Source: Eledone cirrhosa
Lineage: Eukaryota
Reading direction: 5' to 3'
NCBI GenBank assembly: GCA_964016885.1
Contig: OZ024742.1
Location: 28,644,001-28,708,000, forward strand
Length of the DNA: 64,000 bases
Part shown: piece by piece, positions 391 through 61,140 of the stretch
Numbering within the stretch: the stretch's first letter is position 1
How the letters are laid out: the number at the start of each line of letters is the position of its first letter
Notes under the pieces: generated by a model
The model's database searches: none
Seen by the model: only the letters and a program-made list of their open reading frames with translations
What the model was told of the DNA's origin: nothing
Translations under genes and position numbers: made by a program

Positions 391-522
391 TATGGTTTTA
401 TAAATATAGTTTCCATTTATTATTATCTTCGAATATTTACTCCAGTAACTTGTTGAGTGCTCTATATTAGTTATAAACATTTATGTTTGTCGGAACTCCA
501 ACAAATAAAATACAACTCCTAC
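391..522 (+). mobile_element. Family C PLE-like element, 3' tail only
   Basis: TATGGTTTTATAAATATAGT...TTTACTCCAGTAACTTGTTGAGTGC...CCAACAAAT matches 44964-45095; flanked by (TA)n-rich sequence. Confidence 0.75.
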
Positions 523-974
523 ATATATATATATATGTATATATAGATATATACATGTATATATATGTGTGTGTGTGTGTGTAAGTATGTATGTATGTAT
601 GTTAGATATGGGAAGAACTCAATACAAGTTAATTGTAGAATAAATATTTATTGGGCTCGAGTGAATGGATTATGAAGTTCACTGCTTCATTGAGGTTTCC
701 TCTCGTAGCACGTGGTTATCAACGTGACAGTCCAAGATGTAACCATTGCTGATTGTGAGGAATCTGAGCTTCCTATTCCCACAATGTATTGGCCCTCAGT
801 CGGTTGCGACAATGAATGTTATAATGGCAGGAAAAAAATATCAGTAGATAACAATAGAAATGGCCAGTCAATTATGGGTATATATAATTCTCCATTGACT
901 GATGAAATGACAAGTCGGTCAATCATATTGGTGGTCTCCCCACAACCCCAGCGGACAGAATGGAGAAGGCGTTT

Positions 975-1310
975 CCCCGGAGGACGGCAAGGGAGACAAT
1001 GCTATAATTGGTGGATCAATGAAACAGAATGTTTTTGAAATTTACATGTAAGTGGCTGAACATTCCAGGTGAACGCATGATTCTGAGCATTGCCAGGTGA
1101 ACCCATGAAGCAATTCTCAGGAAGATTCAGCGTGACATATTGTGTAACAAGGCTGGCCCTTACGATTACCGGGTAGAACTGGTTTTTTGCCCGTTCTGGG
1201 GACTGGAGCAACGTAAAATAAGATGCATTACTCAGAAACATAACGCTTCACTAGGAATCGAACATACGACGTTAAAATGACGATCTGAACTCCCTAAACG
1301 TTACACCACG
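975..1310 (-). mobile_element. tRNA-derived SINE, family S2 (decayed)
   Basis: GACTGGAGCAACGT and AAGTGGCTGAACATTCC are reverse complements of blocks in 5664-5940; GGAATCGAAC is a reverse B-box-like motif. Confidence 0.6.
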
Positions 1311-2574
1311 AACCTTCCCTATATTTCTCCACAATATATAGCATTTATTGGAGGCTGTGAATACAGACATTGTTTCTCAGAAATTCTTGTTTCTCCGAGA
1401 TCGGTAAGAAAGAAAATCTTGGAATCATAATTTGTTATTTCTGTTTCCAATAAATTATTCTACTCTAATTTAGTTATTGATTAAGCTATTTTCTTCTGTT
1501 TGTTTATACATACACGATCAGATCTCTCTCCCCTCTCCTCTCTCTCCCTTTCTATTCCCGTCTTTAAGGGTCTTCACCCTATTTTACAAGCAATTTAAAG
1601 GATCTCCGCGTATATGCACACCGTTCTTTATATACATGTAACACATTTTATCAAACTTTTGTTCCAACTTCTTTCTCCTACTCCTTCGTTCTTCCTCCCC
1701 AGCTCTCTAAAGCTCATTCACCCCTACCTCAATTCTCATTTACATAACACTTCCAGAGACACTACACACAACTACATCATCTACATATCTCACCATGTAT
1801 ATATATATATATATATATGTGTGTGTGTGTGTGTGTGTGTGTGTGTGTGTGTGTGTGTGTGTGTGTGTGTGTGTGTGTGTGTGTGTGTGTGTGTGTGTGT
1901 GTGTGTGTGTGTGTGTGTGTGGTTAATAAATGAAAAATCAAACCACAGGAAGCAAAATTACAGTTATATTAGGTGCACGCTTGGAGGAAGTGGATATATA
2001 TATATATGTATATATATATATACATATATATATACATATATATATATACATACATACATACATATATGCATACATATATACATATATATATACATACATA
2101 CATACATACATACATATATTCATATATACATACATATATACATACATACATACATATATACATACATACATATATACATATATATACATATATACATATA
2201 TTCATATATACATATATACATACATATATACATACATACATATGGTGGCTGCCAACTCGTTTTCGAGTACAGCCACTACTTTATATCCATGTAGGAGAAC
2301 CCCTACCGATGCCCTGAACAAGTGTGACTTTTTAGTCCAGCCAGCGACTTGAAAACTCTGGTACAAACACTACACCTGTGACAATTACTGACACATAGTG
2401 CTGGGCCCATGGTACCATGTGACGACAAGTGCAGAGAGATCTCCAGATATAAAGCAATGCCTGTGCCGTGAAGCTTTTATAGTGAGCAAAGGCACTGCAC
2501 AAAGCCAGTTCCACTCTCTTAACCAAGATGATATTTACCAAAAAGAATAACAAGTCAACATCATTGGATACCAG

Positions 2575-2655
2575 CAGGGTTGCAGGTGTTATATCAGAGT
2601 TTTCCTTCTCCTAGAATTCTGCCTTGACAAAGGCTAAGGGGTCATCTCTCCCGGA
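2575..2655 (-). mobile_element. Possible RTE-clade LINE 5' region fragment
   Basis: CAGAGTTTTCCTTCTCCTAGA...GCC...AAGGCTA resembles, from memory, a motif at the 5' end of RTE elements; not searched. Confidence 0.35.
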
Positions 2656-2800
2656 CATACATACATATATACATATATATATAATACATACATATATACA
2701 TACATACACATACATACATACACAGGTGTAGGTACAAAGGAAAGAAAAGAACAATCCATACGTGACGCGAAAGTTGAGAATATTTATATTAATAGTTTGA

Positions 2801-57938: not shown

Positions 57939-58463
57939 ATGTCATACCACACCCATGGCAGCGTGTCCAGCCTCAGGTGACTACAGCCCCACCTTATGTG
58001 ATACCACACCCATGGCAACTTGTCCAGCCTCAGGTGACTACAGCCCCACCTTATAATGTGATACCACACCCATGACACCTTGTCCAGCCTCAGGTGACTA
58101 CAGTGCTACCTTATTATGTGATATCACACCAATGGCAGCTTGTCCAGCCTCAGGTGATTACAGCCCCACCTTATAATGTGTTTCCACACCCATGACACCT
58201 AATCCAGCCCAAGGTGACTTCAGCCCTACCTTATGTGATACCACACCAATGACAGCTTGTCCAGCCTCAGGCGACTACAGCCCTACCTTATGTGATACCA
58301 CACCAATGACAGCTTGTCCAGCCTCAGGCGACTACAGCCCTACCTTATGTGATACCACATCCATGGCAGCTTATCCAGCCTCAGGTGACTACAGCCCTAC
58401 CTTATGTGATACCACATCCATGGCAGCTTATCCAGCCTCAGGTGACTACAGCCCCACCTTATG
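57939..58463. repeat. 57/60-bp minisatellite x9
   Basis: GTGATACCACACCCATGGCAGCTTGTCCAGCCTCAGGTGACTACAGCCCCACCTTAT. Confidence 0.95.
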
Positions 58464-58469
58464 ATACTG

Positions 58470-59400
58470 AAACAATTCACCCCGGAGATTCTATTCACAA
58501 GTAATGCTGCTCTTGTTAACCAGGGAGTTAGCGCTGCAGTGTACAACATCCTGCTTTCCAGAGGTTGCCAAACATTTCAGACTTGAAATCAGCCCTCACT
58601 TCAGGGCGAATACAAATCTCCCTAGGTCATCATCGACGAGTTAGAACTAAAGACGGTCTGACAGATTCACCTAATTGTGGTTTATCACCACACCAGATGT
58701 CAAAGATCAAAGACGTTGACATTTAAGTAGCCAATGACATTCAGAAGGTTTTGTCCAAAGGAGTCTGAGACAATGTCACATCCGAGGAGGAACACAAAGA
58801 CCAACATATACAAAGTCGTTATTACTGACCACCTGCCTGTACGGCTGTAAATAGTGGAGTACCTAAGACTACTTGAGTACTACTACCAACGTTGTCCCCT
58901 CACTAGAAACAACAGTTATATACCTATAGTCACCATCATCAGCTCCTAACAACAGTTACAGACCTTTAGTCACCATCATCAGCTCCTAACAACAGTTACA
59001 GACCTATAGTCACCATCATCAGCTCCTATACTGTTGCCACTTGCACTACCTCCTCACTATAAGCAACAGTGATATACCTATAGTCACCATCATCGTTATA
59101 TACTTATAGTCACTAGCGCTGCATCTTGACCATATTCAACATGTACGGAAATTATTTCTTCACCAGCATTGAAGGTCTTGGAACTGGCAGATGTTATCAG
59201 AACCGACGTCATTCTGTTAATAATGCCGCTCTAGAACACCCACCAGGTCATCCTGACAGAGGGTGATTGAAGGTTACACCGAGGTACAAGAATCCTACTG
59301 CCGCCTATCATATTGAACATCACACGTAACCTGAAATAGTTTCTCATCATAAGGCCATTGATAATGGATAGAGTGCTAAGCTTGGAGTTAAAAGGAAATG
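58470..59400 (+). pseudogene. Decayed RTE-clade LINE, RT C-terminal region
   Basis: Fragments EILFTSNAALV (cf. LFADDAALV), NTKTNIYKVV and LTTCLYGCK*W (cf. TK..VY.AVV.TTLLYGCE.W), H*RCILTIFN and VLELADV; interrupted by a 40-bp tandem repeat at ~58905-59115. Confidence 0.7.
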
Positions 59401-61011
59401 AAAAAATAACAGATAAACAGCTTCATTGAATACAGAAAAGAATTTCCCAAGCAGTTGCTATGGGCGGCTCTGGTTGTCTCTTACTGGCGTCGCCAGACAC
59501 TAGTGGACCTTCATTAGATATTAGTCCCAGGTGACCCCTAATCCACCATCATATAGAACCAGAAGGGTTCCAGCATGATTAGACAATGTATTTGTTATTG
59601 TCGTATCTAGTGTTTGGCCTTATGAGGACCCTCATACACAAAAAATTAAAATGCACAGCAAACCCCCCAATTTTACATATCAACGTTAGCTTGGCGAATG
59701 TAATTGGAACTGAAACGTTATACATACAGGTGTTAAATTAAATAATTCTAACCATCTTAAAGTTAAAACGCCCAGCTGAGGGCACAAATAAATTGCTATG
59801 GCCGTCGCTGGTGTGATCCCCCACCACAGAGGGCCCGGTACAATTGCCCCCCCCGCCCTCATTAAATCCGAACATGATCATCCTAAGTTTTTTTTCTAGA
59901 AAATGTATCCAAGATTATATTATCTAATGTAGCCGTCCATTTTTGTTTTTTGTTAGTCTAAGAGATTAAAGGCTGCTTCTAGAGAGACTTCACTGCTATT
60001 TCTAGCAGCCTGAACAACACATAGTACTTTCCCTACCCAGGAATCCAAATTTCTGTAAAAGAAGCTTAGTATTTATGAACCCTCACTGACACTATGTAGG
60101 AATAACCGACATGTTGTGTGATATTCGTTCTTAATAACAAACATTCATAATAATTCTTATTTGATTATTGATAAACTCATAGTTGTATAATCCAATAAAG
60201 ACTGACAATATTGCAGAACCAATAAATATATCCAAGTGATGTTTAGGTTATGTGTGATGAATAAAAAGGTGTGGCACCACATTATTTATCCTTCTACCCA
60301 CAATACTTAGACAACCTTTCTTTGCCTGCTTCTTCGCCCACTTAATCCTCAGAGGGTCGTGAGGGCAGAATTCTCAAGCTCTCCTTCCCCCGGGTCCAAT
60401 CAGAAGCAACCGTCTCCAACTGATCCGACAGGATCCCCAAGCGAAATAGCTTTATAAAAATCATTGGTTAAACTGAATAGCAAGTAGATCTTTCGACGAT
60501 TTGGTGGACTTCTATTATCATTTGTACTGTAGTGTAGACAAGTGTACTACTGTGCAGTGTAATGTAATGTAGTATAATGCACTGGTATATAATATAATAT
60601 AATATAGAAGAGTAGACTAGTATAATACTGTATATTAAAATAGTTATATTCTCTTATGGCTTATAAAGTTATTGACTAAACATTAGATATCTGCATGCAA
60701 TATATTTAACCTAATTTGAGCTGTTTAACACATCAACCACTGTCATCCCTGACTATAAGATTCAAACCATCGTTATGTTTTCTGTAATATGTATGTGTGG
60801 TAGGTAGTTGACTGGTGTGTGGCGGCGCTGCTCGGTTGGTGTGTGAGAACACTCCATTATAACAGAAACCTATCAGGCACGGAAATCAAAAACATTGCTA
60901 TTCTCCAAAACCCCACTCGCTGTGTGCGTGTGTATATATATATATATATATATATATATATATATATATATATATATATAGAGAGAGAGAGAGAGAGAGA
61001 GAGAGAGGGGG

Positions 61012-61140
61012 GGGGACCCAGTGTATATCTTCGAGAAAGGTACTCAATAGGTAAGTATAGATTGGTCATGTTTGTTTTGTCATAGAAATGACTTCAACAG
61101 GACTAGAACTTTTTCATTCTTAAGAAATCATCAGGAAATA
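61012..61140 (-). mobile_element. Single-arm family B element with mutated hammerhead
   Basis: Minus: CTGATGA-TTTC-TTAA-GAAT-GAAAAAGTTCTAGTCCTGTTGAAG; GTACTCAATA at 61040-61049. Confidence 0.7.

Follow-up and report, generated by a model that had tools for sequence, protein, structure and literature searches.

A paired hairpin at the insertion ends of putative Hydra-type Penelope-like retroelements in Eledone cirrhosa

The Hydra clade comprises Penelope-like elements (PLEs) that carry a C-terminal endonuclease (EN+) (Craig et al. 2021, PMC8557442); this source and the others cited below were available in part, and statements about each refer to the available portions. The choice of the start site for reverse transcription in PLEs and the presence of a tail on one arm only have been open questions since the structures were first described. 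The available text of PMC8557442 ascribes the tail to endonuclease resolution, whereas here we propose start sites of the reverse transcriptase (RT). The proposal comes from a 64,000-nucleotide stretch of Eledone cirrhosa DNA (contig OZ024742.1, positions 28,644,001 to 28,708,000 of the forward strand; hereafter the window), in which a first-pass annotation had noted the motif TRTTGAGTRC in the 3' tails of otherwise unrelated repeat families. We find this motif to be one half of a base-paired hairpin carried by five families, A to E, which appear to be one lineage of Hydra-type PLEs. Hydra-type elements themselves are an already known kind of retroelement.

Stringent long interspersed elements (LINEs) of the UnaL2 type carry a single stem-loop in the 3' tail, which is copied into every insertion. 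That stem-loop, like the hairpin described here, is a small, bulged and conserved RNA hairpin, and it is needed in cis for retrotransposition (PMC1636434, PMC4176376). The Hydra-type hairpins differ in being two internal copies, each downstream of its proposed start site, with the second copy left out of truncated insertions; if the reading developed below holds, they would work like the stringent-LINE stem-loop. Within the PLEs, Poseidon PAc of Anolis (Frangieh et al. 2024, PMC11167929) shares internal RT initiation at two tail-bounding sites and an AT-rich target, and its reverse transcription in vitro needs RNA 3' of the start. It belongs to another clade, however, its starts lie inside the open reading frame (ORF) in one AC-rich stem-loop, and the available text reports no repeated, covarying signal. 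In Adineta vaga, the complex insertions made by EN+ PLEs (PMC3846280) are similar in their inverted 5'-truncated pseudo-long terminal repeat (pLTR), in an optional 31-bp tail and in the TATA/Inr elements of the pLTR, but the portions available describe no signal, in sequence or in structure, that would define the two ends.

All 14 exact matches to TRTTGAGTRC listed by the first-pass annotation were recovered at their positions and strands. In dinucleotide-shuffled versions of the window the mean was 1.02 and the maximum 5, and none of 100 shuffles reached 14; the expectation, given earlier as fewer than one match per 64 kb from uniform bases, becomes 1.0 with composition counted, and the excess itself stands. 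With one mismatch allowed, the window shows no excess (26 matches versus 28.5 expected). Of the two variants previously listed, that at 45326 has one mismatch and that at 18070 has two. A microsatellite begins 33–63 nt downstream of the motif at 13 of the 14 sites, in agreement with the claimed 35–65 nt, and 102 nt downstream at 38554; random window positions satisfy this range, which was chosen after data inspection, in 9.9% of cases. In fold-back insertions the motif is found on the tail arm and beyond the palindrome, as had been claimed, and the context of a well-preserved copy fails at 38554, which has no element around it. Across the 3.0-Gb genome the commonest motif form, TATTGAGTAC, has 106,404 copies versus 3,954 for the reversed control. 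A sample of 40 matches, chosen by position among the first 100 genome matches listed, contained 21 from family A, 9 from family B and 10 others; the hairpin was kept in 26 of the 30 A and B matches and in 3 of the 10 others. Most of the roughly 100,000 copies of the motif across the genome are due to the hairpin. Three loci (L431, L434 and L437) have the exact motif but no hairpin; they lie within a repeat similar by eye to the 3' untranslated region of the B element, and coincidental matches of this kind inflate the genome count.

The tail position of the motif was correctly described, but not its linear nature, as it forms the 3' strand of a hairpin of the type RCTC-stem-loop-stem-TH-GAGY-RC. 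Well-preserved matches pair with an ACTC 11–25 nt upstream to form a lower stem of 4 bp; above it lie a 2-nt bulge in the 3' strand and a short upper stem closed by a loop that varies. The partners in the upper stem change together across families (TA with TA, TG with CA), and in sequence context both lower stems are predicted to pair with probabilities of 0.73–0.99. The motif was also considered as a splice site, a reading rejected on inspection because the position of the GT was inconsistent across families. Full-length copies of families A, C, D and E contain a second hairpin (hairpin 2), of GCTC/GAGC form, before the ATG, so that both hairpins sit between the hammerhead motif and the start codon. 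Hairpin 2 starts 2–7 nt beyond the end point of truncated copies. Because this copy, missing from truncated insertions, sets the end of the tail, the 35–65 nt spacing between motif and microsatellite follows. For family D the second hairpin was predicted beforehand and then found in 19 genomic matches, versus 0 for the control. The second-site partners of A and B came from protein and upstream-DNA searches; gapped pattern searches for them in these two families returned chance neighbors and one satellite. Folding predicts a long-range pairing next to the hairpins in C, which is not seen in A. A separate observation concerns a 58-bp tandem satellite (G000:C1:14.23-14.25 Mb; L157-L185, L248), the unit of which consists of the family A hairpin 1 and a TATAT patch. 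It terminates in a normal A tail and may have arisen by repeated re-priming.

For each of the families A to E, the corresponding protein-coding element was located at another place in the genome. That of A lies in a young tandem array whose unit measures 3,531 bp and which has many identical 784-codon frames, that of B is one broken protein-coding copy, and the C element measures ~3.0 kb (locus L106). A single ORF (717 aa in A, 741 aa in C) contains YRDD/YRD and a C-terminal VIY..YIG/YVG motif; the Pfam GIY-YIG model gave a weak match for B (E 0.0013, under the cut-off) and none in the A or C protein. An N-terminal RWR and, instead of DKG, the motif DKT occur in A and C, and the single B copy has DKT but RRR; aligned relatives show RW[KR] in 110 of 115 and DK[TS] in 114 of 115. 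The CxCx5C linker is present in A, B, C and 109 of the 115 aligned proteins, and none of 92 scorable proteins has two cysteines between GIY and YIG, corresponding to an endonuclease without CCHH. RW[KR], DKT, CxCx5C and the absence of a Cys pair inside the GIY-YIG core are shared with the Hydra clade as described in PMC8557442, as are a hammerhead motif (predicted here), (TA)n targets, tandem and inverted copies and a one-sided tail. Alignment ends run into (TA)n in 171 of 218 cases for A, 125 of 185 for B, 72 of 103 for C and 15 of 18 for E. Hammerhead core motifs and stems were recognized by eye in B, C, D and E, with a U3:A8 variant in A, and are taken as predicted ribozymes; an Rfam scan of the family A element found no match, hammerhead included, and a scan of L332 found just two low-complexity matches (E>5). 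The A unit exceeds the "generally <3 kb" of the Hydra clade, a descriptive rather than defining criterion. In a tree of 41 proteins, made from sequences gathered in this analysis, A to E fall on one branch with two other database proteins (100/100); published Hydra proteins were compared by eye. Taken together, these sequence features assign A to E to one lineage of Hydra-type PLEs.

The description of the families as otherwise unrelated holds for the DNA flanks and fails for the encoded proteins, which are 38–60% identical in the pairs compared. With the hairpin masked, only the C and E upstream sequences align (0 of 500 shuffles) and the other family pairs do not, so that the families are not alignable throughout in the way that simple shared ancestry of the motif would imply. 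As judged from these alignments, the motif has outlasted flank similarity between related families; common ancestry of A to E explains its presence.

Several observations on the host elements can be added. In family A (L319:2183-2265) the predicted hammerhead combines a U3:A8 core with a very long stem II, inside which the centers of A fold-backs cluster. At L088/L123 (G000:C3:45.46 Mb) a family C fold-back runs straight into part of an ORF from another Hydra-type family (33% identical to C), possibly a template switch between families. Searches for related proteins gave 2,049 matches, mainly on 2.2–3 kb contigs of about unit length, and the Hydra-type clade is far larger than the 27 families in File S1 of PMC8557442. 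A hammerhead core at 25292 (+) in the window, also represented at L058/L125, belongs to a Neptune/Nematis-type PLE family with a CxxxxCxxC linker that is (TA)n-associated and has no hairpin. The tails of all 10 copies of this family lack GAGYRC (one match lies 249 nt out), and the motif is therefore no general mark of (TA)n-targeting PLEs in this genome.

Conservation of the hairpin was followed in 79 metagenome loci with related ORFs, forming 64 clusters. Presence was counted in the 41 clusters with 160 nt of upstream DNA, a count that left out 33 of the 79 loci as 5'-truncated or with shorter upstream sequence. GAGYRC occurs twice in this interval in 26 clusters, once in 8, three times in 1 and not at all in 6, against 0.09 per 160 nt in ORF interiors. 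The antisense strand also scores in 25 of the 41 clusters, which we attribute to the near-palindrome GAGCACTC (GAGYRCTC). An RCTC partner accompanies 82 of 109 distinct GAGYRC sites, and these 82 hairpins were anchored by sequence alone, with pairing not required. Their bulge is TT in 52, TC in 19 and TA in 11. Pairing is seen at the first three upper positions in 80, 61 and 56 of the 82, respectively, compared with shuffled means of 61.6, 34.7 and 33.6 (maxima 70, 51 and 48 in 5,000 shuffles). The register with a 2-nt bulge yields 141 of 164 pairs and other registers 33–43. G-U appears 17 times and A-C 3 times, an excess that favors the sense (RNA) strand. In 15 hairpins of equal length the covariation score is 0.385, reached by none of 500 shuffles, with 16 cells changed on both sides and the four lower pairs constant. 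A T/A bias (TATA) lies at -8 to -5 relative to the hairpin. The spacing between hairpins in relatives is 53–83 nt (48 pairs), in line with the tail lengths, and hairpin 2 precedes the ORF match by 19–46 nt in many relatives. A scan of viral contigs found no relative.

A model built from the 15 metagenome hairpins alone placed 7 of the first-pass sites among its 8 best window hits and recovered a new site at 22107–22140; in the same scan it missed 34799, 46088, 52177, 61040, 38554, 45526 and 18070. The same hairpin was seen by eye in published Hydra consensi from coral (Hydra-2_Amil, Hydra-1_Amil) and sea cucumber (Hydra-1/2_Ajap), with two copies before the ATG in Hydra-1_Ajap, and a degenerate form in the published copepod Hydra consensus. 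Covariation, together with unalignable flanks, indicates selection on the hairpin.

Insertion ends were mapped at loci mostly fetched with tail-containing queries, the partner arm being unselected, and after removal of 29 satellite loci, L248 and hits with <80% identity or <30–35 nt. Ends abutting (TA)n are bimodal, lying just 5' of hairpin 1 or of hairpin 2 (68 and 100 of 171 in A, 29 and 43 of 72 in C, 7 and 7 of 15 in E, respectively). Family B has 58 of 125 (TA)n ends at hairpin 1 and most others at an AGCAC remnant. Ends cluster at both hairpins, and the position of the motif is not random relative to element ends. When 174 fold-backs were classified by their arm ends, 142 combined a hairpin 1 end with a hairpin 2 end, 3 had two hairpin 2 ends, 2 had two hairpin 1 ends and 27 were of other types; fold-backs of the predominant type use each end once, and their tail contains hairpin 1. 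A separate sequencing run showed (TA)n loose ends at both end places of A, in 75 and 313 contigs, and a >100-fold fall in depth at hairpin 2 of A; the common variants in that run lie in loops or preserve the pair. Short arms can also cap long ORF-bearing copies. The earlier suggestion that the motif may fix where the inverted arm stops agrees with these data, since short arms end just 5' of the motif-containing hairpin, and the proposed conserved cis signal can now be given as one of PLEs that is tied to element ends.

On the basis of these sequence patterns, the hairpins are probably protein-recognized RNA signals that place the RT at two internal start sites. The endonuclease of the element would nick both strands of a (TA)n tract, and each nicked DNA 3' end would anneal by 1–6 nt to the UA-rich stretch directly 5' of one hairpin. 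The RT held by that hairpin would then copy toward the RNA 5' end, and the two cDNAs would be joined in head-to-head orientation. Priming at hairpin 2 would yield the arm that is longer by the inter-hairpin spacer, and this spacer would be the one-sided tail that contains hairpin 1. Because both cDNAs need the same upstream template, the scheme would call for either two RNA molecules or copying in sequence. We infer the nicking, the annealing, the hairpin-held priming and any two-enzyme step from the arrangement of the ends. The proposal agrees with the behavior in vitro of the Poseidon element, whose RT begins at both internal boundaries of the tail (PMC11167929). In its most specific form, which we offer tentatively and with somewhat less than even confidence, the process would be a twin priming, in which two RT molecules anchored telomerase-style on two identical RNA hairpins extend both nicked (TA)n strands from fixed internal sites, with head-to-head fusion of the cDNAs. 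If this is true, the hairpin pair would be a portable, clade-wide signal that programs both insertion ends, and any RNA with such a pair could be written into (TA)n sites.

A number of observations weigh against placing the RT start sites at the hairpins. The use of tail-containing queries inflates the hairpin 2 ends, and junctions are ambiguous by their TA overlap. The full fold is kept at 9 of the 14 window sites and is incomplete at the remainder, hairpins folded in isolation have low stability (-1 to -6 kcal/mol), and in one A subfamily the first upper pair is replaced by A.A. At site 2 of family B both extended copies seen have a mere AGCAC remnant, yet insertions end there. Published Hydra-1_Obim, in the available part of its source, shows no obvious hairpin copy by eye, 6 of the 41 metagenome clusters lack GAGYRC, and 27 of the 109 GAGYRC sites have no RCTC partner, some of them at contig ends. 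The lower stem is nearly invariant (GCTC/GAGC in 77 of 82) with no covariation there, the ACTC/GAGT form of hairpin 1 may be a single inherited change, and the covariation and pairing shuffle tests ignore relatedness.

The main rival supposes one start and one stop. The RT would start solely before hairpin 2, on reaching the 5' end of the RNA the cDNA would fold back, and hairpin 1, acting in single-stranded DNA or RNA, would stop the second strand or direct endonuclease trimming. Such a scheme explains the strict pairing of hairpin 1 and hairpin 2 ends with a single RNA, and it can draw on the self-priming proposed in PMC3846280 and on the endonuclease-mediated tail resolution of PMC8557442; the near-palindromic GAGYRCTC, by which the antisense strand also scores, suits it as well. 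However, two different reactions would not need the identical geometry seen at both ends, a TA-rich stretch just 5' of a like hairpin. The G-U pairs favor the RNA sense strand, long ORF-bearing copies can be capped by short arms, and the Poseidon RT in vitro starts at both tail boundaries (PMC11167929). We consider this explanation unlikely.

Alternatively, the hairpins could serve ribonucleoprotein assembly, translation control or RNA processing, with ends falling nearby merely through local TA-rich priming patches. The location of hairpin 2 just ahead of the ORF match in many relatives and the ends of family B at a site without a full hairpin are compatible with such a role. Many other TA-rich patches nearby are rarely used, however, and in A, C and E the ends fall into two sharp clusters despite spacers of differing length and sequence, which makes this role improbable. 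A DNA core-promoter or transcription-factor element of the pLTR, the former also raised by the first-pass annotation, is very improbable. pLTRs do bear promoter motifs (PMC3846280) and the lower stem is conserved in sequence, but the upper stem covaries as a single-strand fold. Clustered 5' ends, which probably mark transcription starts, lie ~20–30 nt behind TATA-like boxes, and their distance to the motif is not fixed (~80 nt in A, 82 nt in B and 199 nt in C). Plain shared ancestry with no present function, for which the single branch of A to E speaks, is barely tenable and already largely refuted by covariation, as the hairpin is kept twice with compensatory changes, in distant relatives too, although flanks are unalignable and proteins 38–60% identical, and as common variants in the separate run sit in loops or preserve the pair.

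The hairpin is not mentioned in the available text and supplement of PMC8557442, and the words "hairpin" and "stem-loop" occur 0 times in that supplement. It was likewise not found in the available portions of PMC11167929, PMC3846280, PMC7229834, PMC4209133 and bioRxiv 2026.07.22.740005, nor in full-text literature searches or Rfam, although subscription papers, Repbase notes or further supplements may show it. A hairpin of 20–25 nt, present twice and conserved across distant relatives, opens the start-site question to direct mutagenesis in young intact elements. Among retroelements, the RTs of PLEs are the nearest relatives of telomerase (PMC8557442), and in view of this kinship an RNA anchor beside a short primer-alignment patch bears on the evolution of template positioning.

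Most copies in the window are short fold-backs inside (TA)n with hammerhead core motifs recognized by eye. Family C is represented by a stub (373–531) with hairpin 1 at 435–460 (+; motif 451–460), by an old C-like fold-back at 17865–18146 (+; two-mismatch variant 18070–18079), and by a fold-back at 44631–45104 (+; motif 45023). The last has a short arm at 44631–44820 and a long arm with a hammerhead core at 44904 and hairpin 1 at 45007–45032, and its tail runs up to the (TA)n junction. Family A fold-backs, all on the minus strand, occupy 6147–6345 (motif 6199; hairpin 1 at 6199–6224, in the tail), 30941–31142 (motif 30993), 35377–35565 (motif 35418; hairpin 1 at 35418–35443) and 45474–45606. 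In the hairpin of the second (30993–31018) two A residues face each other and the fold is a 6-bp stem that lacks the 3' bulge, and the fourth is internally deleted, its motif (45526–45535) having lost the 5' partner strand.

Family B fold-backs lie at 33883–34057 (-; motif 33917, hairpin 1 at 33917–33938), at 34752–34956 (-; motif 34799, hairpin 1 at 34799–34819), with a hammerhead core motif, and at 45937–46140 (+; motif 46088, hairpin 1 at 46077–46097), with a hammerhead core on each arm. An old B copy at 52059–52217 (+) has a decayed hairpin in which the motif (52177–52186) does not fold, and a B-like stub at 61040–61137 (-) has a hammerhead core at 61134 and the motif (61040) in a short stem without a bulge. 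The single family D insertion, with approximate ends, is at 45626–45916 (-; motif 45686), with hairpin 1 at 45686–45713 and a hammerhead core on the opposite arm at 45828. The family E stub at 45177–45392 (+) contains a hammerhead core at 45204 and hairpin 1 at 45309–45335, the TA bulge of which accounts for the variant listed at 45326.

Two motif sites, 6087 and 38554, could be assigned to none of the five families. The first belongs to an intact bulged hairpin at 6069–6096 (+), the top window match of the metagenome-only model; the second (38554–38563, +) is an isolated exact match that does not fold and is probably chance or decayed. The additional hairpin at 22107–22140 (-; model E 6e-4), of GCTC/GAGC type and likewise unassigned to a family, had been missed by the pattern used in the first-pass annotation. 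Repeat, tandem and ORF scans, swamped by microsatellites, found no RT ORF within the window, and an Rfam scan of the window gave solely microsatellite-driven miRNA matches, with no hammerhead, among the 150 of 386 rows listed. Another hammerhead-like core, at 9627 (-), adjoins (TA)n. A long tandem array with a ~63-bp unit at 54925–57121 gives rise to stop-free repetitive frames. Between 44631 and 46140, families C, E, A, D and B stand back to back, each in the neighboring (TA)n of the previous one, and this interval is a repeated-insertion hotspot.

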